The notes: generated from the sequence alone by a model not told the origin. A stretch of DNA of 64,000 nt from Candidatus Heimdallarchaeum aukensis (GCA_021513695.1 CP084166.1:992001-1056000); one strand, 5' to 3'. Counted from the first letter of the stretch, positions 4,922 to 50,780 are shown. Translations and numbers: made by a program.

Positions 4922-4950
4922 GGGAAAAAAAGTAAGATAAATGAAAAAAA

Positions 4951-22122: not shown

Positions 22123-22207
22123 TTAAATTAAATAAAATATAAAATCACTTTTTTCTTTTTTTTTAATATTACTTCATTATTCATGAGTTGAAATTTTACT
22201 TAATTTC

Positions 22208-22412
22208 TTCAGGACTCTACCCAACCAGTCAACAAACATATCGAAAGTTGTGAGGACTGGGTTAAGAGAACATGAAAGACACAGTCTTAATTAAGTTCTC
22301 TAGGGGGTTCATCTCCTGATTCCGGGCACTCATCACTCCCACAGGGAAGACCGGGTGTCGTAGGAATGAAACCTACGTCTTTAAGCATCTAGCTCAAGAC
22401 ACTATATAAATG
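22208..22412. ncRNA. Candidate structured non-coding RNA (GC-rich island with several hairpins); class not assigned
   Basis: About 200 nt are near 50% GC inside a 470-bp intergenic gap in a ~30% GC genome. Hairpins include cgtagg-aatgaaa-cctacg, agagaac...gttctct and cagtc...gactg, plus the palindrome cttaattaag. Confidence 0.25.
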
Positions 22413-22593
22413 ATAATTGATTATATAAAGACAGCTGAAAAGTCTTGACACTCCCCCATATCGTGTAATCTTTCTAATAACTCCACAAACTAAAAATTTA
22501 GTTCTTTACGTAAAAAAGTATTTCATCTATATTTGTGTTAAGCAAAAATGGTTGATGAAACATATTCTTTATAAAAGTTAATGTGAAAGATAA

Positions 22594-27942: not shown

Positions 27943-28049
27943 CAAATTTTTTATAGAAAAATAAAACTAATGCTTTTTTTATTTTTTATTTGCACCTAGG
28001 AAAATGTTATTTATTGTTAACGAACTATTGGTATAATAGGAGAAGCAAT

Positions 28050-29462
28050 ATGTCTTATCTTTTAGATGAGTTAAAGAGGAAAAAACAAGCTGAAACCGAC
28101 GAAACCATTGATAAAATACTTCTAATGGGACTTCAAGAAGCTGGAAAAACAGCTATTAAAGATGTTGTTTTTTTTGATAAAGATCCTGAAGAAGTTGTAG
28201 AATATATGGCAACAACTCATTATCAAAGACAAATCATTGGAGACAAAAAAAAGAATTTACTTATCGATTCAGGAGGACAAGAAACTTACTGGAACGAAGC
28301 AGTAACATATTTTCGCTACTTGATTTTTTCTAATGCTAAAATCCTTATTTGGGTGGTAGATTTAACTCATCCTGAACTTTTTGATGAATCAGAAAGAAGA
28401 TTTAGCTTCACAATTAGACAATTTAAGAAAGAGAACAAAGATGGAAAGGTCTATGTTTTTTGTCATAAAGCTGATGTTGTTGAACCAGAAAAACTAGATG
28501 CAGTAGTTGAGCATGTAAAAGAACTGTTATCTGATCCCAAATTTGAGATTGAATTTAAAATTACATCAATATTCAAAAAAAATGAGTTAAAGCAAATAAT
28601 GAATAAAATTCTCGAAGAATCTTCAATTGATCAAGAACAAATAGAACTTGTCACTGATGTTGAAAAGAAAATTGAAGAAAGCCCTGAATTTGTTAAATTT
28701 CTAGAAGAACATAAAGCAGATCCACGAGTTAAAGAACTCATGGAATATATTAAACCTCAACCAAAACAATATTTACCTTCATTTGGGAAAGTAGAAGTAG
28801 ATGTGAACCTTGAAAATTATGGTATTATTGAAATCATTATACTTGATAAAGAAACATTGAAGCCAGCAATAGGAGCTTCATCACATATCATCTCTAATAA
28901 AAAACAATCATTTGAATATATTCTGGCTCTTAATTATTTTAAAAACTTAATAAAATCAAAAGAACAGAAAATTGAAGCTCTTGGAAGTACCTTTAGTTAT
29001 CCTGAAGGTGAAGTTCATGCATTGATTTTTAATTTGAAGAATAGTTACATTATAATTACCTCATTTAATGAAATAGATGAAAACATAAAAAAGGAATTAT
29101 ACAAATTTATTCTCAAATTTTCAGATGAAATGGTAAAAGAAAAATCACTCGTTAAAGAAGAAAGCATTTCTAAACCCCCTAGTATAGCAACTGAACAAAG
29201 CGTTGAAATAGAACAATCAATAGCCCAAGAAGTGAAAAAAGATGAAAAGAAGGTTTTTGCAGAAGAAGTTTCTTCAACGCAAAAAGAAACTTTAGTCAAA
29301 GAAGATGAAGAACAAAAACAAATGATAAAACAAGTCTCCTCTGAAAAAGCTAAATTAGAAGAAAAGAAAAATGGAGTAGGTTTAGATATTACAGAGAGAG
29401 ACATAACTAAAATAGCTAAATTTCTATATGATCAGCTGGATAAAGAAAAAAAAGAAGAGTGA
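28050..29462 (+). CDS. Rag/Gtr-like GTPase with a C-terminal roadblock-type domain and an acidic/K-rich tail
   Basis: G1 LLMGLQEAGKTA, G3 LLIDSGGQE and G4 FCHKAD (hKxD) follow the RagA/Gtr1 pattern. The ATG at 28050 lies after aggagaagcaat. The track ORF starts at 27990 on an alternative codon. Confidence 0.7.
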   Translation: MSYLLDELKRKKQAETDETIDKILLMGLQEAGKTAIKDVVFFDKDPEEVVEYMATTHYQRQIIGDKKKNLLIDSGGQETYWNEAVTYFRYLIFSNAKILIWVVDLTHPELFDESERRFSFTIRQFKKENKDGKVYVFCHKADVVEPEKLDAVVEHVKELLSDPKFEIEFKITSIFKKNELKQIMNKILEESSIDQEQIELVTDVEKKIEESPEFVKFLEEHKADPRVKELMEYIKPQPKQYLPSFGKVEVDVNLENYGIIEIIILDKETLKPAIGASSHIISNKKQSFEYILALNYFKNLIKSKEQKIEALGSTFSYPEGEVHALIFNLKNSYIIITSFNEIDENIKKELYKFILKFSDEMVKEKSLVKEESISKPPSIATEQSVEIEQSIAQEVKKDEKKVFAEEVSSTQKETLVKEDEEQKQMIKQVSSEKAKLEEKKNGVGLDITERDITKIAKFLYDQLDKEKKEE

Positions 29463-30686
29463 TTAAACTGGTCTACTTTTTCCAATACTTCTGTATTCAC
29501 AGTTATTGTCAAGAAGAATTGGAATCTCTCTCATTTCAGTTATACATTCATGAATTGGGTATAATTCTATAGTTGTAGTACCAAATCCTTTCTTAATTTG
29601 AATTGCATGCTCAAAATTATCAGCATTCTCTAAAGCTACCTCTAATATTGATTTATGTAATTCTCTTCCACAAATGTCACATTTAAAGTAAATTTGCTTA
29701 TTGATCTTGGTTTCTAATTGTTCTTTGTTTAATATGTTATGAGATTCGAAAAAGGTAATCAATTTATCTTTAACCTTTATTTTAGCAACAGAGATGACTT
29801 CTTCTGTTTTGAACATTTTTCTCATTTGATCACAAATTTCATGAAAAGTAGAAATCTGCTGATTTAACTGTTCTTGCGAAGAAAAAACTGAAGTAATGAC
29901 AAGGTCTTCTTCGATTTCTCTAATAAATATCCTTGAGTCACTCAAAGAAAAGACAATATAATTCAAATCAAGACTAGGTGAGTAGATCTTAACTAGTTCA
30001 GAGCGTAATCTGGAAAGATTGAGATTAACTTCTTTTTCTGGTTCAGAGTATAAAACCAAACCTTTGGAAGTTGATAGGGTTAGAAGATTTAGATTATATT
30101 CTGATACTATCTCTTGAATGTTAGAAGCTTTTGTTAGGTCTCTAGGATAAACAACAGAAAAAATTCTTTGCATTGCATCCCATATATTCTCTTCAAAGAT
30201 AGAAGTTTCATAGATTTCAGAATTGGGATACTTGCTCAACTCAAAAATATCTTTAATTGAACGTGTAATAGCAGCCCTTTTGTCAACAGGAACAACATCC
30301 ATTTTATGGGCGAAAACATAGATTCTAGCGCTAGAACCAATTTTTTTAAGATTATCCAAAGTAAGATCAAAATAATATTTAGAACGCATGATGTTAGAAG
30401 CATCAGAAATATCAACAACATAAATCAAAGCTTTAAGGTCACTAAAAGTTCTTTCAGTATATTTCTCAAAAAGCTCATTTAAATAAGAAGATTGACCTCC
30501 TACATCAACAAGATTAATAGAACTTCCTGCAAAATTGAAAAGCTTACGATTAATTCGAACTGTAGCAGGATTAAGAGAAGTTGCTTGAGGAGCAAAGCCT
30601 TCAAAAACAACTTGACGAATAGAAGTTTTACCAGATTGAGATAACCCCAGAATAACAATTTTTGATTGAAGTGAACGATCATTCAT
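29463..30686 (-). CDS. Rag/Gtr-like GTPase with a C-terminal roadblock-type domain and a zinc finger
   Basis: G1 VILGLSQSGKTS, G3 LVDVGGQ and G4 FAHKMD. The C-terminus carries CDICGRELH...HEC. It is convergent with, and abuts, the other Rag-like gene. Confidence 0.7.
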   Translation of the reverse strand: MNDRSLQSKIVILGLSQSGKTSIRQVVFEGFAPQATSLNPATVRINRKLFNFAGSSINLVDVGGQSSYLNELFEKYTERTFSDLKALIYVVDISDASNIMRSKYYFDLTLDNLKKIGSSARIYVFAHKMDVVPVDKRAAITRSIKDIFELSKYPNSEIYETSIFEENIWDAMQRIFSVVYPRDLTKASNIQEIVSEYNLNLLTLSTSKGLVLYSEPEKEVNLNLSRLRSELVKIYSPSLDLNYIVFSLSDSRIFIREIEEDLVITSVFSSQEQLNQQISTFHEICDQMRKMFKTEEVISVAKIKVKDKLITFFESHNILNKEQLETKINKQIYFKCDICGRELHKSILEVALENADNFEHAIQIKKGFGTTTIELYPIHECITEMREIPILLDNNCEYRSIGKSRPV

Positions 30687-31174: not shown

Positions 31175-32995
31175 CTCAACCAAGCCATACAATGCTATGA
31201 AGAGGATGAGACAGACATCATACACGAATCGTGGGAATCATAAAGAAGAAAAGAACTAAAAACTCTTTTCTTCACTCCACGAGAGACAAAAAGAAAGAAA
31301 GATTTCCTCCTCCTACAGGAGAGAATTTGTCCTTTCGTTTTTGTCTACTGGGACTGCAACCAATGGCTGAGCCCTAGGCAAACAGTGAAATGGGTAGAAC
31401 TGTATCTTTGACCAGTGAGGTAATCAGTGATAGTGTTTCCTTGAGGACTGAAAAGAGCACCAAGGAACTTACGAGCGATATTCATTGCTCCTGTGAGGTC
31501 AGAGTGGAAAGTGTAATTGCAAGAAGAACAATGAACTAAACCTCTTACTGGACGGACAACTTTCCTTCCACAACGAGCACAGTGAGAAGATGTCCCTTTT
31601 TCCTCTATCGTTAATATTCGGTGAGGGTCAAAACCTCTTAATATTAGTGCCCGACGGAGAAGAGTAAGAACAAGGTAAAAATTCCACTGATGAAGTTTCC
31701 TGCGAAACTTACGAGTACTTTTACCTTTCTCTTTTCCTTTCTCCTCGCGAACATGTTTAGGGTAACCTACAACGACGAAAAGGTCATACATTCGCGCATA
31801 GGTCTCTATCGTCTGCACAACCTCACTTACAAATTGGTAAATATAGGCTCGTTTAACGTTTCTATATCTTCTTCGAAGAAGACTAAGAAAACGATAAACT
31901 TGATGTTTTTTACCCGACTGGTCGTTTAAAGCTGCTTTTCTCTGAAGACGGGAAAGTTTGACTTTATATCGATGGTTGACTCTATTCCACTGTTTGGTAT
32001 GCCAGAATTTTATCTCCTTACTTGTTAATTTCTTTTTAGGGGTTAGTAACACTCCTGCAGCAGGAATGTTTATCCCTAGATCTATTCCCAGCACAGCTGG
32101 GGGGAGAGAAGAAGAATTCTCTTCTTTAGGAGGATAAAAAGAAGAAGGAAGAACTCTTAGTTGGAAATACACCCACCATTCATGTGTAGAACGTTTATAT
32201 CTTAGTTCTAAACTTTTCACCCTCCCTTTTTTTAACTCTTTCTGGTGGAAAGTGCTCATCTCTAAAGGTAACCATAACTTCTGATGATAGGAGGTGTTTC
32301 TTCTCCACGTATCTAACGAGTCTCTTATCCCCACCCACCAACGAGTGAGAGTGTTATTCTTCTCTTTAGGTAAATGGACGAGAACGAACCTCTTTGCATT
32401 AATTAGTTGTCTTCTCACTCTCTTTATTGGAGGACGAGTAGAACTGGGTTTATAACCTTGTTCGTATAATTGCACAGCTATATCTCTACATTCTTGAAAT
32501 TCGTTGTGGGAACAATAAGGGAACATTTTCTTCAGGTCGTGAGGAACAGTCTTTCTTCTCTCTTCTTCTTTAACTTTTGAAGTCGTTAGCGTCAATTCAT
32601 CTAGTTTTCCTCTATGAACTCTTATTTTCCCTTTTTTAGTTTTAGCACATATTTTTCTTCTGTTGTGATGAATTATTCTCACATACTTCTCTATTATCCT
32701 CGTGTCTCTCCCCGTTATTCTCCTTAACCTTTCCTTTTTCCTCGTCGTCAACACCTCATTCTTTATTCTCACTTTCAAGGTTTTGACGACGTCCTCCACC
32801 ATTCTTTTCCTTCCTTCTTTTCTTTTTCTGTTTATTTTTTCTCTTGTTTTTTCTTCTTATCTTTTTTTATTCTACTTTTTTTCCCTATAAAAACCCCTCT
32901 CCTCTTTCTCCTCTCCTTTCTTCTCTTTTTTCTCTCCTTCTTCCTCAACAACTGTAAATTACGTGAAAAATAGACACATGGTGACACAGGAAAAA
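31175..32995 (-). mobile_element. IS200/IS605-family TnpB-only element: leader, tnpB and a 3' flank that may encode a guide RNA
   Basis: The upstream leader on the gene strand (32803-32990 on +) is purine-rich and carries ctataaaaacccc. That sequence is homologous to the leader of the first element (cttactttttttccctat..aaaaccc shared). The 3' flank at 31175-31345 shares tctttctttcttt and gtggagtgaaga with the first element. Confidence 0.55.
31345..32802 (-). CDS. tnpB: TnpB (IS605 OrfB-family RNA-guided nuclease homolog), apparently intact
   Basis: RuvC-I is AVLGIDLGINIPAAG, the zinc finger is HCARCGRKV...CSSCNYTF and RuvC-III is HSDLTGAMNIARKF. The RuvC-II position reads VVVGYPKHV, with no Glu at the canonical position. 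The other copy has the same change, so it may be a family feature. Confidence 0.75.
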   Translation of the reverse strand: MVEDVVKTLKVRIKNEVLTTRKKERLRRITGRDTRIIEKYVRIIHHNRRKICAKTKKGKIRVHRGKLDELTLTTSKVKEEERRKTVPHDLKKMFPYCSHNEFQECRDIAVQLYEQGYKPSSTRPPIKRVRRQLINAKRFVLVHLPKEKNNTLTRWWVGIRDSLDTWRRNTSYHQKLWLPLEMSTFHQKELKKGRVKSLELRYKRSTHEWWVYFQLRVLPSSFYPPKEENSSSLPPAVLGIDLGINIPAAGVLLTPKKKLTSKEIKFWHTKQWNRVNHRYKVKLSRLQRKAALNDQSGKKHQVYRFLSLLRRRYRNVKRAYIYQFVSEVVQTIETYARMYDLFVVVGYPKHVREEKGKEKGKSTRKFRRKLHQWNFYLVLTLLRRALILRGFDPHRILTIEEKGTSSHCARCGRKVVRPVRGLVHCSSCNYTFHSDLTGAMNIARKFLGALFSPQGNTITDYLTGQRYSSTHFTVCLGLSHWLQSQ

Positions 32996-33000
32996 TAAAA

Positions 33001-34553
33001 TGGAAATTTAAAACTGGGGGATCAATAAGAGCATCTCCAGCTCTAGGAGATCTTAACAATGATGGCTATCTGGATATAGTTATAGGGTCTTCTGATTCTT
33101 ATTACTATGCATTTAATGGAAGAACTAGGACAATCCTCTGGACACTCAAGACAGAACTAATAATAGGGGGAACTGCTCCAACATTGGCAGACGTTGATGG
33201 GGATAACGAACTAGATGTCCTACTTAATGGTAAAAATGTGTATCTTGTTGGAGGAAGAAAGGGCAATTTAATCTCTATTTATAATCAAAATGAAGAGGTT
33301 GGAACTTCTATCACTGTTGGTGATTTGGATAATGATGGCAGTTTTGAGATGATATATGGTTCCAAAAGTGGAAACGTTTTTTGTTATACGATTACTAATT
33401 CTGATAAAACAAGTTATAGGATCTATTGGCAGGGGGATGGTGGTGATTTCTTCAATTCTGGAAACAGTTTTACAATAGATAAAGATGGAGATACTGTTTC
33501 TACTTTCTCTGAAAAAATTATTGGAACAGACCCAGAAAAAAGGATACGGATGGAGATTTTCTTATAGATGGATATGAAATATCTGCTACTAAAACAGACC
33601 CCTTAGTTCAAGATTCAGATAATAATAATATCGGAGACCAGAATGAAGATTTTGATGGTGATGGGTTAACAAACCTAGAAGAATATAAGAAAAAAACAGA
33701 TCCTTTGAGTAGAGACACAGATGAAGATTTTATACCAGATAAAATTGATATTTTCCCAATTTTGTTTCCAGAAGGTTTAATTTATCTCTCTCTATTCTTT
33801 CTTTTATCAATATTAATAGTTTCTACAATAGTAAAAAAGAGAATAGAAAATAAAGGCGATAAAAATGAAAGTCTTATTCTTAAATTTAAAATGAAAAGAA
33901 ATCAAATATTATCAGAGATATCTTGGAAAGGCTCTTATAATAATTACAAAAGTGTTCATTTACAAGCTTTTAGATGGTTTGGAATTTTTGCTATTTCATC
34001 TGCAATAATGATTAATTTTATCATTTATCCACTTTTTAAAACAGAAATTGTTTACCATGATATTGTAAAAACAAGCTATTCTACAGTTATCTATGTTTTA
34101 ATTAATGTTATTTATTTTGCGTTATTTTATTTATTAGGTTCTGGTTTTTACTCGCTAGGGTTTTCAAGTAATGGAGTAACTTTTAGCTATGATTCTATTG
34201 CTACAAACTTGTTTCTTTCTTCTCTTATCATTTTAAGCATTTCTTTCGTAAAAGTATCAATAAACTTAATTTTACTTCCAATTTTAACTTATTTACTTAC
34301 ATCTGCTTTCATCACACTTTATAATATACGAAAGGAAAAGATTACTAATAGTAATAATCTCTTAAACTTTGTTTTCATCCTTTTTCCAATATCTTTTCTA
34401 TCTCTTTTATGGTATCAAACGCTTTCTTTCTATTTTGCTATTCCACAACAAATTTTGAGGATAATTTCTTTGATAACAGGAGTGTTAATGTTTCTTCTAG
34501 CACTAGAAATCTTTACATTATCTACTCTGAATTCTCGTGAAAAAACAAAATAA
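33001..34553 (+). pseudogene. FG-GAP repeat + thrombospondin-type-3-like (DxDxDG) repeat + polytopic membrane domain gene. It is interrupted by a frameshift in an A7 run and lacks an in-frame start next to the IS leader
   Basis: The frame is open from a stop at 32971 and reads WKFKTGGSIRASPALGDLNNDGYLDIVIGS... (FG-GAP). At cagaaaaaaggatacggatgg (about 33536-33556) the reading shifts. It then continues DTDGDFLIDGYEISATKTDPLVQDSDNNNIGDQNEDFDGDGLTNLEEYKKKTDPLSRDTDEDF... into the listed ORF 33705..34553, which has 7 or more TM helices. Confidence 0.5.
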
Positions 34554-34990
34554 AGAGCATTTGAAATCTAACAATTCTAGTACTCCTTTCTAATTTTTTT
34601 ATCTCACATAGATAATAGTTAGTTGTAATGTTTGAAAACAGGTTGTGAATAAAGTAATAATAGCTCCTCTGTCATTGATTATGCAATAAGTATAATCTTC
34701 CATATTCTTGACATTACATCTTATCTCTCAAATATGATTATCTATATGAACTCATTTCTTTAAACAAACTATCTTCATTTGCTTATTTTTGTAAATAGTA
34801 CATAATTTCCTATTATTAAGACAACAAAAATCTCCTAAAAAGTTCGGTAATACATGATTGAAAGAAGTCGATTGATGGAGAAATCCTGGTGATTAACTTC
34901 TTGAGAGATACTAATTAATTATTTTCGAGCAAATGCTCAAGAAAATGATTATTCTTCTTGGAACTCTTTAAACTACAAGACAGAGTAATT

Positions 34991-36031
34991 TTATGCTCTT
35001 TCACATTTATTTTTTTCATTATTTTCTACAATACATAGTTCTAGAAGTATATCATACGTTTTTATCATCTCTCTCATAGTTTTTAACATTATTGGGTAAA
35101 GACGCATAATACTATGATTCTTTGTATATTTATAATCTGAATGATAATTAGGATAACGCGAAGCACCAACATGTTTTTCCAAATTCATGCTTAAAATAAC
35201 TATATATGCAAACAGTAGTATAAGATAAAGATAACTTTCTATTTGTACTAACCAATCTTCTTTCTGAATTTGTGTGATAAATTCTTCTCTCAACATTCTT
35301 CGCTCATCAGTTTGCAATTTGATATTATATTCTTGTTCGATTGTTTGAATGACATAGTCTGTTATGCTAATGAACTCTTCTTTCACAATTTTATCAAAAT
35401 TTTCTTTTCTTATGGATTTTATTCCTTTCCTAAATAATGAAAACAGCTTGTTGTATTTAATTAATATTTCCTTTAATGTAGTGTGTTCAAGATACAGAGT
35501 TTCTTCTGATTTCCTTTTTTGCTCATAATCACTCAAATATTTATCAATTGCTTCTATAATGCTTAAAAATCCTTCTCTTTGGTTATCATTAGAATAATCA
35601 GCTAAAGATTCATAGAGATCTTTTAGTTTTTCGAAGAAGAATTTAGTAAAAGTATGTCCAACTTTTATAAGCCGTTCAGTTTGACACAGTCCAGTAAGTA
35701 GAAGTAGTGATTTTCCTAATTTCTCAACAGATTGTTGGAGGAAGAAAATAGACTGTGCATATAGTTTCTTGTGATATAGAATTTTTGAAGCTCTTAAATC
35801 CTCTTCAGCAGTATCTAACAGTCCTAAAGCTGATATTAAATCTCTCTTTTCTGGTGGGATCTCATACTGTGATCCATATTTTAATTGCCATATTAATTGC
35901 CTTTTGATATCTTCTATATCTGTTTCTTGTAATGCAATTTTGTCATTATTATCATTCATTAAATAGCACTGATGGTTAATATTTAAATAATTAATGGCAA
36001 CTATTATCATAATGCAATAAAAATCGAGCAT
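34991..36031 (-). CDS. HEPN-domain protein
   Basis: ASKILYHKKLYAQSIFFLQQSVEKLGKSLL is a HEPN N-terminal helix, and ERLIKVGH is an Rx5H motif. The likely true start is the internal MNDNNDK at about 35959. There is a C-terminal hydrophobic segment. Confidence 0.5.
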   Translation of the reverse strand: MLDFYCIMIIVAINYLNINHQCYLMNDNNDKIALQETDIEDIKRQLIWQLKYGSQYEIPPEKRDLISALGLLDTAEEDLRASKILYHKKLYAQSIFFLQQSVEKLGKSLLLLTGLCQTERLIKVGHTFTKFFFEKLKDLYESLADYSNDNQREGFLSIIEAIDKYLSDYEQKRKSEETLYLEHTTLKEILIKYNKLFSLFRKGIKSIRKENFDKIVKEEFISITDYVIQTIEQEYNIKLQTDERRMLREEFITQIQKEDWLVQIESYLYLILLFAYIVILSMNLEKHVGASRYPNYHSDYKYTKNHSIMRLYPIMLKTMREMIKTYDILLELCIVENNEKNKCERA

Positions 36032-36183
36032 CTGCTCTTTAAAATGAGAAACTATTTTATATTAAAAACTCTTAATTGGTTTTAAAACATGATAATTAAA
36101 GAAAAAAGAATAATTAAATCCTTCTATTTAACTATAAGGAGGAGTAAATAAACATAAAAAAATTGTGAGTAGAAGGGAAATAT

Positions 36184-37419
36184 ATGTCATTTAATTTTGA
36201 AGTTAAAAATACAATTGCATCCTTAAGGCAATCAAGGTTGAAGCTTGGCAATGTAGAAATAGAAACACCAAATTATATAATGACACATATTGAAACTAGA
36301 CGACTTACTACAGGGTATAATCTTGTTGGGAGTCGTGAGCCTAACCCAAAACTGAATGAATTAATTAGTGATCATATACCTGATAGATTAACTGCACAAA
36401 AAATATTTGAAAACTCCGATGAAATAGAAAAATTATGTAACAAGCTAGATAACTTGACTAAATCTGATCGGATGAATTTTGTTCAATTTCGTTTGAAGGC
36501 TGGAAATGAAATTAGCAAATATGAATTATGTCAAATTGTTAGGTTGCAGTCTGATATGAACAAATTTTCCATTATAACAATACCTGATCCTACTTGTTCA
36601 TATAATAACTCTTGGATTGATTCTATGGAAGCAGCTCTCTATGAGGCTAAGGTTTCACAAGAAGTTGGAACATCGGAACTATTTATGCCTACTGTTTCGC
36701 TTGCTCAGCCTTTATTGGATGTGGAAAAGAAAATTTCGTGGTTAATAGATAAGCAAGTTCCATCCATTGGATTAAGAGCACACGGGCCACATTTTCCAGC
36801 TACTTTGCACAAATCAACAAATCTGATTACACAATCAGATAATCCGATTTGGATTCATCTGTTTGACTTATCCAAAAAATATAAGAATGTGTCCCAACTG
36901 CATTTGGCACCTTTGACAAGTGTTGATACTATTTCCTTGAAAAAAAAACATGGGTATAGCAGCAGCAAGAAAAATATTATGGATGGTTTATTGCCAACAC
37001 CAGAGAATATATCTTTAGAACCAACTGCTAGGGAAATAGAAGAACAAAAGGTCAGAGAGATAAAGCGTAGTCAACGGTTTTTGTTTGAGCAATTAGCTTT
37101 AGGTTACATTTCTATAAATGAGCGGACTAAATGGATTGGTCATGAACTTTCTTGTACTTGTCCCATTTGTAAAAAGACAAAAGATATAGATACCTTTAGG
37201 ATTTATCTCTCAACACATGATAAAAACTCACTTCTACAAGTGCATGAATATACTGGTTTTAACCAGGAAATGTTGGCAATTAGAAAAAATATTAGGGATA
37301 ATGATATCTCAGAGTATTTTAGACAAAAAATATTAGTAAAACGACATAGACGCAAACTATCTAAAAGATATCCTGAGCTTGAAAGGTTTATTAATCCGCC
37401 TTTAGATAGTTACTTCTGA
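36184..37419 (+). CDS. Divergent tRNA-guanine transglycosylase (TGT) family protein (ArcTGT/DpdA-like)
   Basis: The N-terminus MSFNFEVKNTIASLRQSRLKLGNVEIETPNYIMT parallels archaeal TGT (FEIK..GR.G.L....IETP..MPV). Candidate catalytic Asp residues sit in QSDMNKF and HLFDLS. The zinc site is ELSCTCPICKKT...H, followed by LLQVHEY. About 100 aa of C-terminal extension are basic. Confidence 0.6.
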   Translation: MSFNFEVKNTIASLRQSRLKLGNVEIETPNYIMTHIETRRLTTGYNLVGSREPNPKLNELISDHIPDRLTAQKIFENSDEIEKLCNKLDNLTKSDRMNFVQFRLKAGNEISKYELCQIVRLQSDMNKFSIITIPDPTCSYNNSWIDSMEAALYEAKVSQEVGTSELFMPTVSLAQPLLDVEKKISWLIDKQVPSIGLRAHGPHFPATLHKSTNLITQSDNPIWIHLFDLSKKYKNVSQLHLAPLTSVDTISLKKKHGYSSSKKNIMDGLLPTPENISLEPTAREIEEQKVREIKRSQRFLFEQLALGYISINERTKWIGHELSCTCPICKKTKDIDTFRIYLSTHDKNSLLQVHEYTGFNQEMLAIRKNIRDNDISEYFRQKILVKRHRRKLSKRYPELERFINPPLDSYF

Positions 37420-37447
37420 GATATTTATCCAAGAAAAGGTGATATAA

Positions 37448-38059
37448 ATGAATCAAAAAGCGACAAAAAATATGTCGGAAGAAGAAAATAAAATGATAAA
37501 AAAATGGATCTATTTAATGTTAGCTGCAGATAACAATAGTTCAATCAAAGGAAAAGTTAGAATAACTAAAGAATTCTTTTTGATTACCAAGCAGTTAGCT
37601 CCTGAAGTATTTAAGGCAGCTCAATTCTATCCTTATCACTTTGGGCCTTATAGTACTCGTTTTGCTGTTTGTGTTAACGAACTGATTAAAAGTAATCATA
37701 TTAATATATTGTATAAAAGTGGAGATTATCATTATGAGTTGTCAAAAAAAGGTTTAGTTGAAGCTAAAAAATATTTGAAAACAATCCCTAAGAAAGAAAA
37801 ACAAGTAATTGATGATATTAAGAAAAAAAGTAAGTCTCAATCTTTAAAATCAATGTTAAAAGAAATTTACGAAAAATATCCTAAGTATACAGTTCGTTCT
37901 GTTATTAAAGCAGATCTTGATACTAAAAAAGTAAACTTAGATTCTGTAGAAAAAGTAGATGATAGTTCAGGGTTTGTTTCAAGTGATATGAAACATGAAC
38001 GTGACATCGTCTTGAAAGGTGAAGCTGCAAAAAGATTTCTAGAAATAATCTCAAAGTGA
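37448..38059 (+). CDS. Hypothetical protein, candidate antitoxin for the downstream GNAT toxin
   Basis: It ends 7 nt before the GNAT toxin. Its C-terminus ERDIVLKGEAAKRFLEIISK resembles the toxin-binding C-terminal helix of DUF1778 (TacA/AtaR) antitoxins. At 203 aa it is much longer than typical. Confidence 0.4.
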   Translation: MNQKATKNMSEEENKMIKKWIYLMLAADNNSSIKGKVRITKEFFLITKQLAPEVFKAAQFYPYHFGPYSTRFAVCVNELIKSNHINILYKSGDYHYELSKKGLVEAKKYLKTIPKKEKQVIDDIKKKSKSQSLKSMLKEIYEKYPKYTVRSVIKADLDTKKVNLDSVEKVDDSSGFVSSDMKHERDIVLKGEAAKRFLEIISK

Positions 38060-38066
38060 TACATCA

Positions 38067-38570
38067 ATGACTAGTCATGAAGTAGAGTATAAAATTGAGA
38101 AACTAAATATATCTCATACTCTATTAGACTTTGATTGTGGTGATGAAAACGTTAATGAGTATTTTAATCAGAGAAGCTATGAAGAAGTTGAATTAGGTAA
38201 TGCTCAAATTTATGTGTTTATACTTGTGAATACAAATGACCTCATAGGTTTCTATACGCTTTCAATGAAATCTGTTCGTTTTAACTATGAAGGAAGAGAA
38301 TATGATCAACCTGTGTGTTTGCTTGGGCAAATTGGAGTAAATAAAATTTTCCAAAATAAAGGTTGGGGAACAATATTAATTAAAGATGCAAAGAAGAGAT
38401 GTAAAAAAATCTCAGAAGATATTGGAAGCATTGGTTTATTATTGGAAACATATAAAGAAGAATTAGTGAACGGGTTTTTCAAGAAACTTGGTTTCGAATA
38501 TGTTGAACATCACAAAATGAAAAACCGAGGTACAAGATATAGATTGTTTTGCAAACATGAACATGAATAG
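38067..38570 (+). CDS. GNAT-family toxin of the AtaT/TacT/KacT type (aminoacyl-tRNA acetyltransferase toxin family)
   Basis: LLDFDCGDENVNEYFNQRSYEEVELGNAQIYVFILVNTNDLIGFYTLSMKSVRF, then LLGQIGVNKIFQNKGWGTILIKDA, then IGLLLETYKEELVNGFFKKLGFEYV. These align block by block with AtaT (F.CG.e.Ln.fL / vGyYtL / QGqGwG / LGF). Confidence 0.7.
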   Translation: MTSHEVEYKIEKLNISHTLLDFDCGDENVNEYFNQRSYEEVELGNAQIYVFILVNTNDLIGFYTLSMKSVRFNYEGREYDQPVCLLGQIGVNKIFQNKGWGTILIKDAKKRCKKISEDIGSIGLLLETYKEELVNGFFKKLGFEYVEHHKMKNRGTRYRLFCKHEHE

Positions 38571-38625
38571 AAAAAGGAGAAATGGATATAAAACAGCTTA
38601 CTCTATTTAAAGCTTAAAGCTATTT

Positions 38626-38666
38626 TTGAATATTATTCTTTACTTTTTTCTAGCTCTAATCCTCTC
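38626..38666. repeat. Copy A of a 41-bp dispersed repeat (IS/tnpB-leader-related)
   Basis: ttgaatattattctttacttttttctagctctaatcctctc differs from copy B at 41085-41125 by three transitions. The core tattctttacttttttc also appears in both tnpB leaders. Confidence 0.7.
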
Positions 38667-38901
38667 TTCTTGTTTAATTACTGTAAGTATAATTACTTGT
38701 TCGAGTGTAAGATTGTTGAAGTTCAGTTCAGTACCTAAATCATCCAAAAAAATAGTTATTTAATAGGAATTTATATTTAACTCGAAAAAATCCCATTTTT
38801 AATATTTCTTTATGAAAGTATTTTCAATAAACGGAAAGTTTGCTACAAGAACTCGAAGAGTTTTCTATTACTATTGCAATCCTTCTTTTTTAAAATGTAA
38901 T

Positions 38902-39354
38902 TTATTGTATAGAATCTATGAACCTCTTTAAATCCTCTTCTGGTAAATCAGTATATTTCTTATATCTCTTGAATTTTTTACTGAAGAATTTTATATCAAC
39001 ATAAATTTGTATTTTCTCTTTGCCTTCAATTTGTTTTCTGTCTGTTACAGGAAAAGTTGCCCAATATAACTTGTATTCTTTTGAATGCTTAAGTTCATAT
39101 TGTTGTTGTTTTGGTCTTATCTTTCCTTGATACTCAACACTATCAATTATCATTTTTATGTCCAACAGAAACATGAGTGTAGAAGCAGTTCCAGCATTAA
39201 TTATGTAAAGTCCCCATTCTTTTGCTTGTGGGTTGAATATTGGTCCAGATAAGTTTAGCGAAGCTCTTTTTGGTCTAAAGAAGGATAGGTATACTGTTAC
39301 AACTGACAGAAAAATAGATATTGTAGAGAATATTAATGAGACTACTTCTGTCAT
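38902..39354 (-). CDS. Small membrane-anchored hypothetical protein
   Basis: An N-terminal TM helix MTEVVSLIFSTISIFLSVVTVYLSFF, a second hydrophobic stretch, and a charged C-terminus. Confidence 0.4.
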   Translation of the reverse strand: MTEVVSLIFSTISIFLSVVTVYLSFFRPKRASLNLSGPIFNPQAKEWGLYIINAGTASTLMFLLDIKMIIDSVEYQGKIRPKQQQYELKHSKEYKLYWATFPVTDRKQIEGKEKIQIYVDIKFFSKKFKRYKKYTDLPEEDLKRFIDSIQ

Positions 39355-41500: not shown

Positions 41501-42637
41501 ATGATGGAAATAAACAAAATTTATCTTAAAGATTGTATAGAAGGTATGAAGGAACTTCCTGAAGATAGCATAGATTTAATATTTGCAGATCCACCATATA
41601 ATCTTCAATTGAAAAATGAATTATATCGACCTAATCAGTCATTAGTGGATGCTGTAAATGATGAATGGGATAAATTTTCATCATTTGAAGAGTACGATGA
41701 TTTTACAAAAAAGTGGTTATCAGAATGTAGGAGGGTGTTAAAAAAAACAGGTTCTATATGGGTAATAGGGTCGTATCACAATATATTTAGAATCGGAAAA
41801 ATAATGCAAGATTTAGGTTTCTGGATATTAAATGATATCATTTGGATAAAAACAAACCCTATGCCAAATTTTAGAGGTACTAGATTTAATAATGCACATG
41901 AAACTCTGATTTGGGCTTCGAAAAATGAAAAAGCTAAACCTACTTTTCATTATAAAGCTATGAAGGTATTTAATAATGATAAACAAATGCGAAGTGATTG
42001 GTATATTCCAATTTGTATAGGAAAAGAAAGGTTGAAATTAAACGGAAAAAAATTACATTCTACACAAAAACCTGAAGCATTGCTATATAGAATAATAATA
42101 TCAACATCAAATGTAAATGATATAGTGCTTGATCCTTTTATGGGTTCAGGTACTACAGCTGCAGTAGCAAAGAAACTAAGAAGGAATTTTATTGGTTTTG
42201 AAACAAATGAAATATATGTAAAAGCAGCAAGAGAGAGAGTTGTTAAAGTCATACCCATGGATCCTGACATTTTGGATTATAAAGTGGAAAAAAAACCACC
42301 AAAAGTTCCTTTTGGTACTTTAGTAGAACATAATTATATTAAAGCTGGAGATTGGCTTTATTCAAAAGATATGAGATATAAAGCAATAATAAAAGCAAAT
42401 GGGTCAATTGAATATCAAGGTAAAAACGGTTCTATTCATAAAATTAGTGCTCAAATTTTAAATAAAAAAGCAAATAATGGATGGGATTTTTGGTATGTAA
42501 AAGAAAACGATAATCTTGTATCGATTGATACTATTAGAAGAAATTATGCAAGTAAAAACATGAATTATATGAATGATGAAATAGATATGAGAAATAAAAA
42601 AGTAACAGACAAACTTTTAACTAATTACTTGGAATAA
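41501..42637 (+). CDS. DNA methyltransferase, beta-class (N6-adenine or N4-cytosine), part of a Type II R-M pair
   Basis: Motif IV IFADPPYNL lies near the N-terminus and motif I LDPFMGSGTTAAVA lies downstream, which is the beta-class order. About 130 aa of C-terminal extension follow. Confidence 0.85.
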   Translation: MMEINKIYLKDCIEGMKELPEDSIDLIFADPPYNLQLKNELYRPNQSLVDAVNDEWDKFSSFEEYDDFTKKWLSECRRVLKKTGSIWVIGSYHNIFRIGKIMQDLGFWILNDIIWIKTNPMPNFRGTRFNNAHETLIWASKNEKAKPTFHYKAMKVFNNDKQMRSDWYIPICIGKERLKLNGKKLHSTQKPEALLYRIIISTSNVNDIVLDPFMGSGTTAAVAKKLRRNFIGFETNEIYVKAARERVVKVIPMDPDILDYKVEKKPPKVPFGTLVEHNYIKAGDWLYSKDMRYKAIIKANGSIEYQGKNGSIHKISAQILNKKANNGWDFWYVKENDNLVSIDTIRRNYASKNMNYMNDEIDMRNKKVTDKLLTNYLE

Positions 42638-42642
42638 TCTTC

Positions 42643-43512
42643 GTGCTTACTAATTATCTTCCCTATGAAGTTTTTAAAAGAATATTAACAAAGACAATCT
42701 TTCAAAATGCTAAAATAAGTTTATTAGAAAAAGTTGCTAAATATCCTTCAAGATATACAGGTTTATTTAGGCCTACCAAACCTAAATTAAAATTAATCCA
42801 GAACATTACTCAATCAAATGAAATTCTATTTGGCGATGCTTTTGAGATCATAATTAATGAATATTTGAATAGATTAGGTTTCTCTCCAATTAAAAAAAAT
42901 TATTCCTATAATGGAAATGACTTAATGTTTGATCAGATTGTAGGAAAAGAAAATACTATTATTTACATAGAACAAAAAATAAGAGATGATCATGATTCAA
43001 CAAAAAAAAGAGGTCAAATAGAAAATTTTGAGAAAAAGGGTGAATTATTATTGAAACTATATCCTGATTTCAAAATTACTGGTATAATGTATTTTATAGA
43101 CCCAAATTTAAAGAAAAATCGAAGATATTATATGCAAGAATTACAAAGAATAAGTACTCAATTTAATTTTGAAACTCATCTCTTTTATGGAAAAGAGTTT
43201 TTTGAATGGATAGGAAAAGATGAAATCTGGTTAGAAATAACAAGCTATTTATCAAAGTGGAAAGAAGAGATACCTGATTTTCCCACAATTAATTTTGATG
43301 AAAATCCCGAAGAATCTTTTGAGGAAATCAAGCATCTACAACCTAATTTACTGATAAAGCTTCTAAGAAATGATGCAATATGTAAGGAGATTTTTCCCGA
43401 ATTGTTCCCGGAAAAAACGACATTAAATCTACTTCTGGAATACTATATTCATGAAAGAGAAAAAAATAAGACTAATACAATGGTTATTGAACATTTAAAA
43501 AAAGTGTTGTGA
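42643..43512 (+). CDS. Putative Type II restriction endonuclease, cognate to the methyltransferase
   Basis: It starts 5 nt after the methyltransferase stop. A PD-(D/E)xK-like arrangement is present: ...DAFEIII... D..MFDQIV... IIYIEQKIRDD (D...ExK). Confidence 0.45.
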   Translation: MLTNYLPYEVFKRILTKTIFQNAKISLLEKVAKYPSRYTGLFRPTKPKLKLIQNITQSNEILFGDAFEIIINEYLNRLGFSPIKKNYSYNGNDLMFDQIVGKENTIIYIEQKIRDDHDSTKKRGQIENFEKKGELLLKLYPDFKITGIMYFIDPNLKKNRRYYMQELQRISTQFNFETHLFYGKEFFEWIGKDEIWLEITSYLSKWKEEIPDFPTINFDENPEESFEEIKHLQPNLLIKLLRNDAICKEIFPELFPEKTTLNLLLEYYIHEREKNKTNTMVIEHLKKVL

Positions 43513-44322: not shown

Positions 44323-45342
44323 TTAATTAGAGCAATATGAAGTTTTATTTGTGAAAATTTCAGGATCATCTAGTTCTCTCAATCTTTTAAGTGTAACACT
44401 TTTCCATTTATCATAAAAATCAACTAAAATACCTTCTTTTTCCTTTAATGTTGGTTTTCCTGTATCATCATCCATAATAAATTCAAATCCGTAATCAATC
44501 TTAAAATTAAATTGATCTGTATGCAAAACTCTTTCATGAGGAAACTTAATATCGTTATCCAAAGATGAACAAAAATTATAATGTCGAACTTCAATATGAA
44601 TTGATGAGTTTGAATATAAACCAAGCCAGTCCATTATATTTTTCTTTGTTGATTGAGGATTATATCTATTTGCTTTCGGTGTTGTAGTACAAATAATAAA
44701 ATTGCCATTTCTTATATTCTCCTTTTCAAATTGTTTTACTAACCAATTTAATGTTTTATAGTGTCGCTTATTATTAACTAAATTTACACCAAGATATCTG
44801 TCCACAATCATTACTTCCTTTGCAAATCTGAATATCTTTTTGATAAATCTTGAATGCACTTCTGTTAAATTATTTAATTCTGCTAAGTTTAATGATGTAT
44901 TCTGTATTTTATTGTAGAAATCTATTTCTGTAATTAATTCCTCTGATACATAGCTACTACTCAATTTTCCAATTTCACACTTATTTCTACAATTATTGTA
45001 AGGAAGTATTATCCAATCTGGATTTTCTCTGCTTTGAATTTCACAATAAGCTATACATTCATCTTTTTTTTTCTTTCCTTCAATTTTAATTTCAATTATT
45101 CTTCTATTATTTTGCATATTCGAAAGCATTTCTTCTATGATGAGTCTTTCTTCTATTGGTATAAGTGAAAGGGTTTTTGATTTAATAGGTAAACTAAAAC
45201 CTTCTGGTTTTAGAAGTATACCGTTTTTTCTAAGGGAAATCAATAAAGAAACTAATATTTTAGAACGATACATAATAAGCGTAGAATTTTCAGAATTGTC
45301 ATCTAAAATTTTAGGAGATAATACAAATGTCTGTACCGTCAT
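44323..45342 (-). CDS. Hypothetical 339-aa protein, partner of the upstream ABC ATPase; candidate nuclease/effector
   Basis: Its start overlaps the stop of the ATPase gene by 4 nt. It contains an acidic cluster EFIMDDDTGKP that could be a DxD metal site. No confident domain assignment. Confidence 0.45.
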   Translation of the reverse strand: MTVQTFVLSPKILDDNSENSTLIMYRSKILVSLLISLRKNGILLKPEGFSLPIKSKTLSLIPIEERLIIEEMLSNMQNNRRIIEIKIEGKKKKDECIAYCEIQSRENPDWIILPYNNCRNKCEIGKLSSSYVSEELITEIDFYNKIQNTSLNLAELNNLTEVHSRFIKKIFRFAKEVMIVDRYLGVNLVNNKRHYKTLNWLVKQFEKENIRNGNFIICTTTPKANRYNPQSTKKNIMDWLGLYSNSSIHIEVRHYNFCSSLDNDIKFPHERVLHTDQFNFKIDYGFEFIMDDDTGKPTLKEKEGILVDFYDKWKSVTLKRLRELDDPEIFTNKTSYCSN

Positions 45343-47249
45343 TCAAATAGCTCCTTATAACTTAGATCAAAGAAATCATCTGGCCATTCATTTATAAAAT
45401 TACCATGTTTGTCAAATTCGATAGGAACTATATTAGCTCCTAGTTTTGTTTTTTCAACAAATATAATTGATATAAGTTTTGGACTTATTTTCTTTTTCCT
45501 AATGAGTTTTTTGATTCGTAGAATTAATTGTTGACTATGAGTTTCAATTATAAATTGTTTTGATAAATTCCTTTTAACATGTTCAACAAAAAATTCTCCC
45601 AATTCAGCTTGCAATCTTGGATTAAGATGTATCTCTGGTTGTTCTATTAAAAGAATTTCATTTGGTTTATTTGACATTATCGTTTGTACAAGAATGGGGA
45701 GAACCTGACTCACACCAAATCCAATATCCGGTAATGCCACCGGATATTTTGTGATATTATCTTCGAATTTCAAGGAATATACCCCTGATAGTTTGTCTTT
45801 ATCTGCTGTATATGAGACTGTGTAACCGATTTTTAGTTTTTTCAACCAATTATTTAGTTCATTTATTTTATTTTTATATGAATAGATAAAATCTGCTGTT
45901 TTTGATCCTGAAACACCTACATTAATAGGTCTACTCCCTCCAAATATGTAATATCGAGATGGTTTATCTCTAAGAGGACCAATAAAAGTAATGCTCTTCA
46001 TCAATTCAATGAATTGATTTCTATTCTCTTCAGTCACGTCATAATCAAAATATAAATTCTTTTTTCCATGTTCAAGTTTAAAAAACGTGTTGATTTTAAG
46101 TAATTCACCTTTAATTGGATTACCAACAAATTCAATAGATAAATTATGATGAATAAACTTAATTAATTTGTTAATTAGATCTGTTTCTATCTCCGATGGG
46201 TCTTTAAACATAATAATTCTAAATAATTTCTCAATTTTCATATTAATTGATTCTTCAATTAGAATCCTAAAATCATGATCGATTAAAATATCATCTTTTA
46301 TTTCATTTAAACCAATTTCAACCTTTTTGCAAATTTTTTCAATTATTTTATCTTTTTTTAACAGAAAAAATTTGTTTTTTTCTAATTCTCTTCTAATTTT
46401 TTCTACTATATTTTTAATTTCAATTTTTTTCGCTTGACTATTTTCCTGATAAATTTTCAATATAGTTTCTATAGGAACTTTAATATTAATCGTAGGAATT
46501 TTATCGTTATCAAAATGAATCTTCTTTTCAATTTTTTCTTCTATATCAAAGACATCAATTTTAAATTTCTCTTCATATGCAGAATAAGAGATTATAAATG
46601 GTGTATCAATGTTTTCAACAATTGTGATTTTCTTGTATCCTCCAGATATTGACTCTCTCAAAAACGGTAAAAGAATCATCGGTATAACTCTTTCTGTACT
46701 TATTTTTGAAAGAGAACAAGTATATTTTATCCGCTGATAAATCCTAGAATTTTCTGTTTTGCAATATACTAATTTTGCTGAAATTAATGATTTTTCAATC
46801 TTTTTGCCATAATTTCTAGATATTCCCCATATTATTTTATCTAAAAGAATGTAAGGTCTCTCTTCAATCTTTTTTGAAATGTATGTTAAGTTGATTTTGA
46901 ATTTTTTAAAAATCCTTTCCTTGTATGGTGAAATATGAAGATAATCTGAGGATCGCCACTGTAACCCAATTTCAACTCTTTTTCTAGTATCATGACCAAA
47001 AACAATTTCTTCGAAAGGTCCAATATCAACATAAGTCCCTTGATGTAGAAGAACATTATTTGGGTCATTGTCTTCTATAGTTTGTTTTAAGGCTAAAAGT
47101 GATTTCAAAATAGATGATTTTCCACTACTATTTTCTCCAAATATCAGTGTAATCGGTTTACATGGTATTCTAGAGCCCTTTTTTCCAAAGGCTTTAAAAT
47201 TTCTTAAATAAATTTCAGTTAACATGAACAAACACCAAGTTTCTTTCAT
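45339..47249 (-). CDS. ABC-type (AAA_15/AAA_21-like, OLD/AriA/LmuB-like) ATPase with a split nucleotide-binding domain
   Basis: An N-terminal IYLRNFKAF...ITLIFGENSSGKSSIL (Walker A) is followed by about 480 aa of insertion. Then comes LLIEQPEIHLNPRLQAELGEFF (Walker B/D-loop, reading E-Q where D-E is usual) and IIETHSQQ (H-loop). Confidence 0.7.
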   Translation of the reverse strand: MKETWCLFMLTEIYLRNFKAFGKKGSRIPCKPITLIFGENSSGKSSILKSLLALKQTIEDNDPNNVLLHQGTYVDIGPFEEIVFGHDTRKRVEIGLQWRSSDYLHISPYKERIFKKFKINLTYISKKIEERPYILLDKIIWGISRNYGKKIEKSLISAKLVYCKTENSRIYQRIKYTCSLSKISTERVIPMILLPFLRESISGGYKKITIVENIDTPFIISYSAYEEKFKIDVFDIEEKIEKKIHFDNDKIPTINIKVPIETILKIYQENSQAKKIEIKNIVEKIRRELEKNKFFLLKKDKIIEKICKKVEIGLNEIKDDILIDHDFRILIEESINMKIEKLFRIIMFKDPSEIETDLINKLIKFIHHNLSIEFVGNPIKGELLKINTFFKLEHGKKNLYFDYDVTEENRNQFIELMKSITFIGPLRDKPSRYYIFGGSRPINVGVSGSKTADFIYSYKNKINELNNWLKKLKIGYTVSYTADKDKLSGVYSLKFEDNITKYPVALPDIGFGVSQVLPILVQTIMSNKPNEILLIEQPEIHLNPRLQAELGEFFVEHVKRNLSKQFIIETHSQQLILRIKKLIRKKKISPKLISIIFVEKTKLGANIVPIEFDKHGNFINEWPDDFFDLSYKELFE

Positions 47250-47317
47250 TCACACTCTTGATGAATTCTTTACAAATTTATGTAATAAAAATAAAAACTT
47301 TTCTGGAATATCTATGT

Positions 47318-50779: not shown

Positions 50780-50780
50780 T

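Follow-up and report, generated by a model that had tools for sequence, protein, structure and literature searches.

A conserved three-gene locus encoding TGT-like, Panacea-like and GNAT-family proteins in the Asgard archaeon Candidatus Heimdallarchaeum aukensis

We describe a three-gene unit from the Asgard archaeon Candidatus Heimdallarchaeum aukensis, whose complete genome measures 3.08 Mb. The analysis covered a stretch of 64,000 nucleotides (nt) of this genome (GCA_021513695.1, CP084166.1:992001-1056000), hereafter called the window, in which the G+C content is ~30% throughout. All three genes lie on the plus strand. Gene A (36184-37419, UJG41675.1) encodes a protein of 411 amino acids (aa), which is a very divergent relative of the TGT (tRNA-guanine transglycosylase) superfamily with a predicted TIM barrel and a C-terminal zinc subdomain. 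Gene B (37448-38059, UJG41676.1) encodes a Panacea-like protein of 203 aa, a putative adaptor and candidate antitoxin. Gene C (38067-38570, UJG41677.1) encodes a GNAT acetyltransferase of 167 aa from the TacT/AtaT/KacT toxin family. The spacers are 28 nt between A and B (37420-37447) and 7 nt between B and C (38060-38066). The open reading frames (ORFs) were found exactly where the first-pass annotation of this DNA had placed them, with the same orientation and spacing. Its description of the genes as an operon also agrees with our data, as the unit is operon-like and short or overlapping junctions recur over 20 loci, mostly from -7 to +28 nt.

The arrangement was found to be conserved well beyond the window. 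All three genes were present at 20 loci with 12 distinct A sequences, and the order was A-B-C in 20/20. In most of these loci, adjoining genes overlapped (-7 or -4 nt) or were separated by short spacers of up to +28 nt. Among the initial homologue loci, every A or B homologue with a readable contig kept the A-B-C order, and 28 further loci came from scanning metagenomes with the B family. One B homologue was labelled Odinarchaeota. In local searches of all loci with hidden Markov models, the B-like gene had an A-like neighbour at every locus whose contig reached far enough; the B-like loci without an A-like neighbour (L024, L025, L037, L040, L041; loci are designated by L numbers) were on short or cut contigs only. 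The flanking genes varied from locus to locus and included genes for an SMC-like protein, a trypsin-like protease, an integrase and an alpha/beta hydrolase. Because the flanks differ, the co-inherited unit consists of the three genes alone. The distance matrices of the three proteins were correlated over the 12 distinct loci (A-B, r 0.98; A-C, r 0.92; B-C, r 0.94; Mantel p 5e-4), and part of this correlation could mirror the shared host phylogeny. The arrangement is beyond chance, with the same order in every related locus found.

A nearly identical copy of the unit occurs at another chromosomal position in a related species. The region 32978-39178 of the window (6.2 kb) was 97.5% identical to a segment of Heimdallarchaeum endolithica (L015, 1796-7995). 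The flanks of that segment were ~90% identical to positions 21414-22184 and 22182-22461 of the window. Based on this flank homology, the cassette occupies a different chromosomal site in H. endolithica, and the matching site in the window (~22183) is empty. Besides the three-gene module, the shared segment contains a broken beta-propeller gene, an HEPN gene and a portion of an ORF of 150 aa. Its ends showed no clear inverted repeats or target duplication of the transposon type, and only CAT/CATGAG microhomology was observed. The three genes of H. aukensis and H. endolithica differ at 14/2343 nt, none of them in C, and with 14 differences the ratio of nonsynonymous to synonymous polymorphism (pN/pS) between the two copies is uninformative.

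The sequence of the C protein, a putative toxin, assigns it to the TacT/AtaT/KacT family. Among chains from the PDB, it matched 7f37 (E 9e-17), TacT (6g96, 7ak8 and 5fvj; E 1e-14 to 1e-12), KacT (5zgn; E 6e-9) and AtaT (6gts and 6ajn; E ~1e-7, or 9e-8 for one AtaT match), the weakest value for the TacT, KacT and AtaT chains being 5e-6. Matches were also obtained with Pfam Acetyltransf_1 and with phrog_1758 (4e-28). The alignment with the solved toxins covers residues 11-145 and extends from the FDCG region near the N-terminus as far as motif B. It includes the acetyl-CoA motif QNKGWG of the Q/RxxGxG type (residues 96-101; 38352-38369, plus strand), which aligns with the corresponding loop of the solved toxins.

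The FDCG region and the Q/RxxGxG loop are thus features that C shares with the toxins of the TacAT, AtaRT, KacAT and ItaRT systems. The module also has their order of antitoxin followed by toxin, if B is taken as the antitoxin, with a spacer of 7 nt. It differs from them in that the partner B is not a DUF1778 ribbon-helix-helix (RHH) protein, a larger third gene is always present, and Phe takes the place of the catalytic Tyr in the C protein of H. aukensis. This residue, Phe138, lies in GFF138KKLGF (38472-38495, plus strand) at the position of Y140 of TacT. The motif aligns with NFFIHHGF of 5fvj, which is the crystallized TacT Y140F mutant, and with NFYLKYAF of 7f37. The Y140F substitution completely abolished TacT toxicity in Salmonella (PMC4942678). 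Among 17 aligned sequences of the C family (16 of them distinct), the position is occupied by Tyr in ~11, those of L016 and L008 among them, and by Phe in 5, namely the two identical Heimdallarchaeum copies and those of L005, L025 and L004. Consequently, the description of C as a clear GNAT toxin in the first-pass annotation holds for the family, as is evident from the 7f37 match, but not for the catalytic Tyr position.

A further motif of C, ETYK (residues 127-130; 38445-38456), is nearly universal in the C family, where one DTYN and two KTYK variants were seen. The TacT segment opposite to it, HALTEE, is different. One may speculate that the Tyr of ETYK makes up for the Phe at the canonical catalytic position.

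The B protein consists of a globular Panacea-like core (residues ~15-153; 37490-37906, plus strand) and a C-terminal extension (residues 154-203; 37907-38056, plus strand). The core carries an invariant YHFGPYS motif and a winged-helix-like segment (residues ~62-118), for which weak matches to the winged helix-turn-helix models DUF4364 and AspA were obtained. Its name in UniRef is "Antitoxin SocA-like Panacea domain-containing protein". Among PADLOC models, B matched PDC-M19A (1.3e-14) and the C-terminal region of DarG (2.6e-4), and it also matched phrog_24871 (1e-12). The Pfam model SocA_Panacea gave weak matches in 3/18 B relatives (best E 0.022). Because the model reaches these three relatives weakly, we use the term Panacea-like for B and do not regard it as a proven member of the family.

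The extension of B, which reads VDDSSGFV...IVLKGEAAKRFLEIISK, tracks the presence of a GNAT gene. It was found in 16/16 GNAT-linked B proteins and was missing from the two stand-alone B' proteins (L012, L014) in the same alignment (A3, 18 B sequences); the other B-like ORFs of non-GNAT loci were compared with B by size and not aligned. Residues 1-153 of B were 29% identical (E 1e-28) to stand-alone B' proteins of ~155 aa encoded beside distant A-like genes. The tail is a candidate GNAT-neutralizing element by analogy with the Panacea+Phd-C architecture (PMC10440598). The first-pass annotation had proposed a TacA-like C-terminal helix in this part of the protein. This reading was ruled out, since neither B nor its 17 relatives matched DUF1778/TacA in Pfam at E up to 10, and a profile of the last 54 residues of B retrieved none of the PDB chains of TacA, AtaR or KacA. 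With the whole protein as well as with the tail profile, PDB matches were at chance level only. B is Panacea-like instead.

The closest parallel to B is provided by the PanAT systems, in which a conserved globular antitoxin domain is paired with unrelated, swappable toxins, small membrane proteins included, with the neutralizing element attached linearly to one end (PMC8832971, PMC10440598). Multidomain PanA antitoxins neutralize by means of helices appended to the C-terminus, as Phd-C does for Doc toxins (PMC10440598). Like these antitoxins, B comprises a core and a toxin-specific part, in this case the GNAT-specific tail. In contrast to them, B is below the Pfam Panacea threshold, GNAT and TGT are unmentioned in the main text of PMC8832971 and PMC10440598, and third genes are rare accessories in PanAT, whereas the TGT-like gene is invariant in the module.

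Sequence profiles place the A protein in a separate clade of the TGT superfamily that is deeply divergent. The first-pass annotation had called it very divergent and had noted TGT hallmarks, two candidate catalytic Asp residues and an unusual basic tail. The divergence is evident from the curated models. The Pfam TGT model (PF01702) reached 16.6 bits, where the cut-off is 26.3, and covered residues 323-382, i.e., the zinc region only; TIGR00432 scored 21.6 bits against 350 (E 6e-5), also in the zinc region only; and TIGR00449 scored 13.3 bits against 47.6. At E<0.01, Pfam TGT was found in 15/81 A relatives. When A alone was compared with PDB sequences, no match was obtained at E up to 10. The profile of the A family matched ArcTGT 1iq8 (E 3.5e-9) over the N-terminal hairpin and the zinc subdomain in hmmsearch, while the values were E 1e-3 for QTRT1 and E 0.1-1 for bacterial TGT. 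The relation of A to the TGT types was judged by these relative profile E-values, the identity being too low for a meaningful tree. In hhalign, the A family aligned with E. coli Tgt over 320 columns (probability 82.8%, E 9.3e-6).

The structural comparison points in the same direction. Based on fold searches, A is a TIM barrel, and TGTs were the sole full-length matches, yet the scores overlap those of other barrels. The best Foldseek match of the A model was TGT 6ygx (E 3.3e-5), with low TM-scores (0.30-0.37). Two AlphaFold models of A had a mean predicted local distance difference test (pLDDT) score of 59.7 and 65.2, respectively, with residues ~55-230 as the only confident part; the alignment behind the second model was shallow. 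The models were poor from residue 231 onward, with pLDDT <50 for residues 234-242 and 255-281.

The conserved residues of A were examined in an alignment (A2) of 81 sequences, which included 75 of the 101 profile matches and 6 closer sequences (A of the window and 5/7 of its close homologues). The IETP motif (residues 26-29; 36259-36270, plus strand; P29 kept in 77/81) is located at the end of the N-terminal R..ETP hairpin common to TGTs and aligns with GRIGKLEVNGKKIETP of ArcTGT and with VVETP of E. coli Tgt. The next conserved block, LQ122...IITIPD135P (36541-36591, plus strand), contains Q122, kept in 77/81 family members, and D135, which in hhalign corresponds to the base-recognition Asp of TGTs (E. 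coli D143, Z. mobilis D156); position 135 is D in 54/81 and E in 8/81. The family-invariant motifs W223-I-H225 and S-V-D248-T-I-S251 (36850-36936, plus strand) follow, in which H225 is kept in 74/81 and D248 in 77/81 sequences. The zinc-site ligands C324, C326, C329 and H354 (37153-37248, plus strand) are kept in 79, 78, 73 and 80 of 81, respectively, and this CxCxxC..H site aligns with that of ArcTGT, QTRT1 and Tgt. Overall, the near-invariant positions of the family are P29, Q122, H225, D248, C324, C326, C329, H354, E362 and Y378. The basic C-terminal cluster KRHRRKLSKR (residues 386-395; 37339-37368, plus strand) is moderately conserved within the GNAT-linked clade, and the last 36 residues have an isoelectric point (pI) of 10.4, so that the basic tail of the first-pass annotation is confirmed.

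The catalytic residues of TGTs have less clear counterparts in A. The nucleophile is Asp (Z. mobilis D280, E. coli D264, P. horikoshii D249). In the hhalign alignment, SVD248TIS lies opposite GID262MFD264 of E. coli Tgt, so that D248 is opposite the first Asp of GxDxFD, and Ser251 is opposite the nucleophile D264. Position 251 is Ser in 55/81 sequences and never predominantly Asp. A local hmmsearch alignment instead sets F301-E302 of A on F248-D249 of ArcTGT, in a part of the protein where the models are poor (from residue 231). The general-acid Asp of TGTs (Z. mobilis D102, E. coli D89, in TDSGG) aligns to residues 74-84 of A, which contain no conserved Asp; the family consensus there is N-G, and the alignment confidence in this stretch is low. 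Thus, the TGT hallmarks proposed for A are retained in IETP, CxCxxC..H and D135, but the Pfam score is sub-threshold and, in the hhalign alignment, the nucleophile and general-acid Asp are unmatched. Both candidate catalytic Asp residues are well conserved (D135 as D/E in 62/81, D248 as D in 77/81), but hhalign does not put D248 at the nucleophile column. These alignments suggest that A keeps the TGT parts for holding a base and a nucleic acid and do not establish canonical transglycosylase chemistry.

In summary of its relation to ArcTGT and QueTGT, A resembles them in the ETP hairpin, the LQ...D block, the GxD strand, the CxCxxC..H zinc subdomain and the TIM barrel. It differs from them in the low identity (~10-16%, below all curated thresholds), in the nucleophile and general-acid Asp, which are not conserved in the profile alignment, and in having neither a PUA nor a C-terminal ArcTGT domain. 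Unlike these enzymes, A is also rare and mobile, and its gene is linked to those of a toxin-antitoxin type. A search of 5.8 billion proteins recovered no more than 7 close homologues, and the profile search gave 101 matches among 1.84 billion representatives. A pattern scan with A over one genome per species (185,579 species) found Heimdallarchaeum endolithica only. Furthermore, no PADLOC model, DpdA included, matched A or its 81 relatives, and DpdA 7ui4 was not matched by the A-family profile at E up to 10. A tblastn search with A against phage records gave no match, and scans of viral contigs with A and with B found nothing.

Distant members of the A family were also found beside B-like genes, together with third genes other than GNAT. 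The A-like proteins encoded next to stand-alone B-like proteins are 17-20% identical to A. The loci of two such proteins, P0139 and P0124 (17% identity to A in alignment A4), are ordered B'-X-A'. Here, B' is 152-160 aa long and lacks the last 50 residues of B, and X is a protein of 171-217 aa with no Pfam family, whose segments close to the two termini are hydrophobic and transmembrane-like. The G+C content of the B'-X-A' loci was 46-49%, except for L038 (35%), versus 25-34% in GNAT-type loci. At L042 and L043, a gene for a zinc-ribbon protein overlaps a B-like gene of 197 aa, which in turn overlaps an A-like gene of 407-427 aa. At L043, two PF10107 Holliday-resolvase-like nucleases are encoded upstream of this pair (970-1952) and an HNH protein downstream (4674-5705). 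B-like genes therefore adjoin unrelated toxin-like genes for GNAT, membrane or zinc-ribbon proteins. Judging from these sequences, the constant element is the pair of A-like and B-like genes, and the variable third gene looks like a typical effector set.

We suggest, with somewhat less than even confidence, that the locus is a mobile three-gene module of the toxin-antitoxin or abortive-infection type, with C as the effector, B as an adaptor and antitoxin, and A as a sensor or regulator linked to B. C would act as the members of its family do, by acetylating the amino group of aminoacyl-tRNA and so halting translation. The Panacea-like core of B would serve as the conserved platform, and its 50-residue tail, found only with a GNAT partner, would hold C inactive. 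A may be a remodelled TGT fold that has become the obligate partner of the Panacea-like core and keeps the base-pocket residue and the zinc subdomain. It would sense or bind a nucleic-acid or nucleobase cue and, via B, control the release of the effector of the locus. In other words, A may supply or process the Panacea trigger through its TGT-derived binding site for a base or nucleic acid.

A comparable division of labor is known from the tripartite toxin-antitoxin-chaperone (TAC) systems, where a conserved pair of antitoxin and third protein serves different toxin families and the antitoxin has a C-terminal extension. The third protein of TAC is a SecB-like chaperone, and it is this chaperone that the antitoxin extension addresses. 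In the module, by contrast, the third protein has a TGT fold, and the extension of B correlates with the toxin type.

Several observations weigh against the suggested roles. The Pfam model SocA_Panacea (PF13274) did not match B of the window, and none of the antitoxins of known GNAT toxins (TacA, AtaR, KacA) was recovered from the PDB with the profile of its tail. The many invariant polar residues of the A family (E59, Q122, D135, H225, H240 and D248) make A better suited to the role of an enzyme than to that of a passive sensor. B-like domains also occur in fuselloviruses, namely in ORF159a of SSV4 (L045) and in SSV3 and SSV5, as hypothetical proteins 33-34% identical to residues 10-111 of B, and they have no A-like neighbour. 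Since these copies lack a TGT-like neighbour, the linkage of A and B is limited to this subfamily and does not extend to every Panacea-like protein. As Phe138 is equivalent to the Y140F change of TacT, the C effector may be weak or inactive here. Finally, the distant contexts of the A family come from ~12 loci in two or three clades, and ~90 other representatives lie outside this sample.

The strongest competitor to the sensor role of A, which we nevertheless consider unlikely, is a system of one antitoxin and two toxins. Here, A would be a TGT-derived enzyme excising or exchanging a base in tRNA, rRNA or DNA, and B would counteract A with its core and the GNAT with its tail. The invariant polar residues of A are enzyme-like, as this explanation would predict, and the pairing of A-like and B-like genes stays constant while the third genes change, as in a co-evolving toxin-antitoxin pair. 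Moreover, at L042 and L043 the B-like gene directly precedes the A-like gene with overlapping ends, and Panacea cores can neutralize toxins directly (PMC10440598). However, a protein of ~400 aa is large for a type II toxin, and neither the nucleophile nor the general-acid Asp of TGTs is conserved in the profile alignment. In addition, a stand-alone B' would have to face both an A-like protein and a membrane protein without an extra element.

It is also conceivable, if distinctly improbable, that A acts on a protein and binds or modifies B or C to keep the system primed or off. The precedent is Cap10, a TGT-fold protein of type IV CBASS (cyclic oligonucleotide-based antiphage signaling system), which clamps and handles the modified N-terminus of CdnD (bioRxiv 10.1101/2025.04.06.647259). 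In both cases, the TGT fold would have been recruited to an immune operon with its catalytic or binding surfaces remodelled. The strict A-B linkage and the remodelled catalytic set of A are consistent with such a role. The resemblance ends at the zinc site, which Cap10 lacks and A keeps (in 73-80/81 relatives), and at the gene content: no Cap9/QueC-like gene, CD-NTase or Cap11 was present in any module locus examined, and A had no PADLOC match.

According to a third explanation, A and C jointly modify a nucleic acid, so that base exchange and acetylation mark self in the manner of Dpd or BRC (BREX-related capture), with B as the regulator. We regard this as very unlikely. GNAT and TGT homologues do occur together in BRC defense loci of archaea and bacteria, in some cases as fusions, and a role as a DNA-modification apparatus has been proposed for them (PMC12839542); the basic tail and zinc subdomain of A would also fit. 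This likeness is one of gene co-occurrence. The module differs from BRC in its Panacea-like middle gene, and the BRC components PglZ, HerA/FtsK, DUF6079, STAND and DUF4007 were absent from the Pfam scans of the window neighbours and of the called genes of L001-L011. The closest relatives of C are toxins that acetylate aminoacyl-tRNA, not base-modifying GNATs, and the pair of A-like and B-like genes also occurs without any GNAT. The latter observation likewise weakens the proposal of the first-pass annotation that A protects self tRNA. Its suggestion of a DpdA-type role is not supported either: A shows no sequence-profile, PADLOC or phage-record match that would connect it with DpdA, and no dpdB, dpdC, preQ0-pathway or other Que-pathway genes were linked to the module among the Pfam matches of called genes at L001-L011, a scan that covers neither every neighbour nor the metagenome loci. 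In the neighbourhoods covered, those of the window and of L001-L011, a restriction partner, DpdB, DpdC, PglZ, HerA and Que genes are not conserved beside the module.

The remaining explanation, that A is a housekeeping tRNA enzyme of the ArcTGT type lying beside an ordinary toxin-antitoxin pair by chance, can appeal to ArcTGT as the best PDB sequence match and to the TIGR00432 E-value, but is hardly credible, being contradicted by the rarity of A and by its constant linkage to B-like genes amid varying flanks, as well as by the far sub-threshold TIGR00432 score in the zinc region only and by the single species found in the pattern scan. The refuting case named in the first-pass annotation, a TGT-like gene of the housekeeping ArcTGT kind with synteny away from the toxin, was not observed, as A never occurred without its partners and the flanks varied.

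Returning to the role of A as a sensor, a broader claim can be formulated, which we consider possible but doubtful. The TGT-like and Panacea-like proteins may constitute an unrecognized sensor-adaptor core of an archaeal, possibly also bacterial, abortive-infection family that licenses interchangeable effectors. In such a core, a TGT fold without canonical base exchange would detect the cue, and GNATs, membrane proteins and nucleases would be the effectors. The Panacea domain has been proposed as a sensor of unknown triggers (PMC10440598). If the claim is true, a Panacea-type antitoxin would for the first time have a concrete partner that senses its trigger, and given this invariant enzyme-like partner, the question of Panacea activation could be tested with three small genes. 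The A-like protein would also be the third immune re-use of the TGT fold, next to DNA modification by DpdA and protein handling by Cap10. The tRNA-acetylating GNAT toxins, studied so far in bacteria, would be extended to Asgard archaea with a non-RHH antitoxin, and the natural Tyr-to-Phe variant offers a ready test of whether the catalytic residue is necessary.

In the papers searched on Panacea, GNAT, TGT, DpdA and Asgard archaea, we found no description of the three-gene module or of a TGT-like partner of Panacea. The parts are already known separately, namely GNAT toxins, modular Panacea antitoxins, TGT folds in defense and the co-occurrence of GNAT and TGT. The architecture is undescribed as a whole in these papers, in line with the claim of the first-pass annotation, but the neutralizing tails of Panacea antitoxins (PMC10440598) and the association of GNAT with TGT in BRC (PMC12839542) have been published.

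As for possible expression signals, gene A is preceded by an AT-rich intergenic region of 152 bp (36032-36183, plus strand), which it shares with the divergently oriented HEPN gene. This region contains the TATA-like sequence TTTTATATTAAAAA near 36055-36068 and, as read directly from the sequence, is a candidate for the promoter region of gene A. Downstream of C, a T-rich stretch (38571-38660, plus strand; CTATTTTTGAATATTATTCTTTACTTTTTTCT) is a candidate archaeal oligo-T terminator of the module by the same kind of reading. Rfam and tRNA scans of the window gave no match.

The neighbouring genes are typical of a variable defense or mobile region. A TnpB-like gene of 485 aa with a Cas12f1-like TNB domain (31345-32802, minus strand) is located directly to the left of the segment shared with H. 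endolithica. Within the segment, the HEPN-domain gene (34991-36031) is divergent to A. In H. endolithica, a single ORF of 530 aa with beta-propeller-like repeats (L015, 1789-3381) corresponds to two ORFs of 127 and 282 aa in the window (33184-34553). As the single ORF is split in two here, the beta-propeller-like gene may be disrupted in the window. The HEPN gene shows the reversed pattern, with 346 aa in the window and 181 aa in H. endolithica.

To the right of the module, a gene for a CcrM-like N6/N4 DNA methyltransferase with a RAMA domain (41501-42637, plus strand) is followed after 5 nt by an ORF of 289 aa without a Pfam match (the pair at 41501-43512, plus strand), which could be a restriction partner. 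Further downstream, four co-directional genes (44323-53702, minus strand) encode proteins of 339, 636, 1153 and 973 aa and probably represent a separate defense operon. Among them are an AAA_15/AAA_21 ATPase with DUF3696 (45339-47249, minus strand, 636 aa) and a ResIII helicase-like gene (47318-50779, minus strand, 1153 aa). On the other side of the module, two adjacent convergent genes (27990-29462, plus strand, and 29463-30686, minus strand) encode small GTPases of the Gtr1/RagA family, which are eukaryote-like signature proteins of Asgard archaea.

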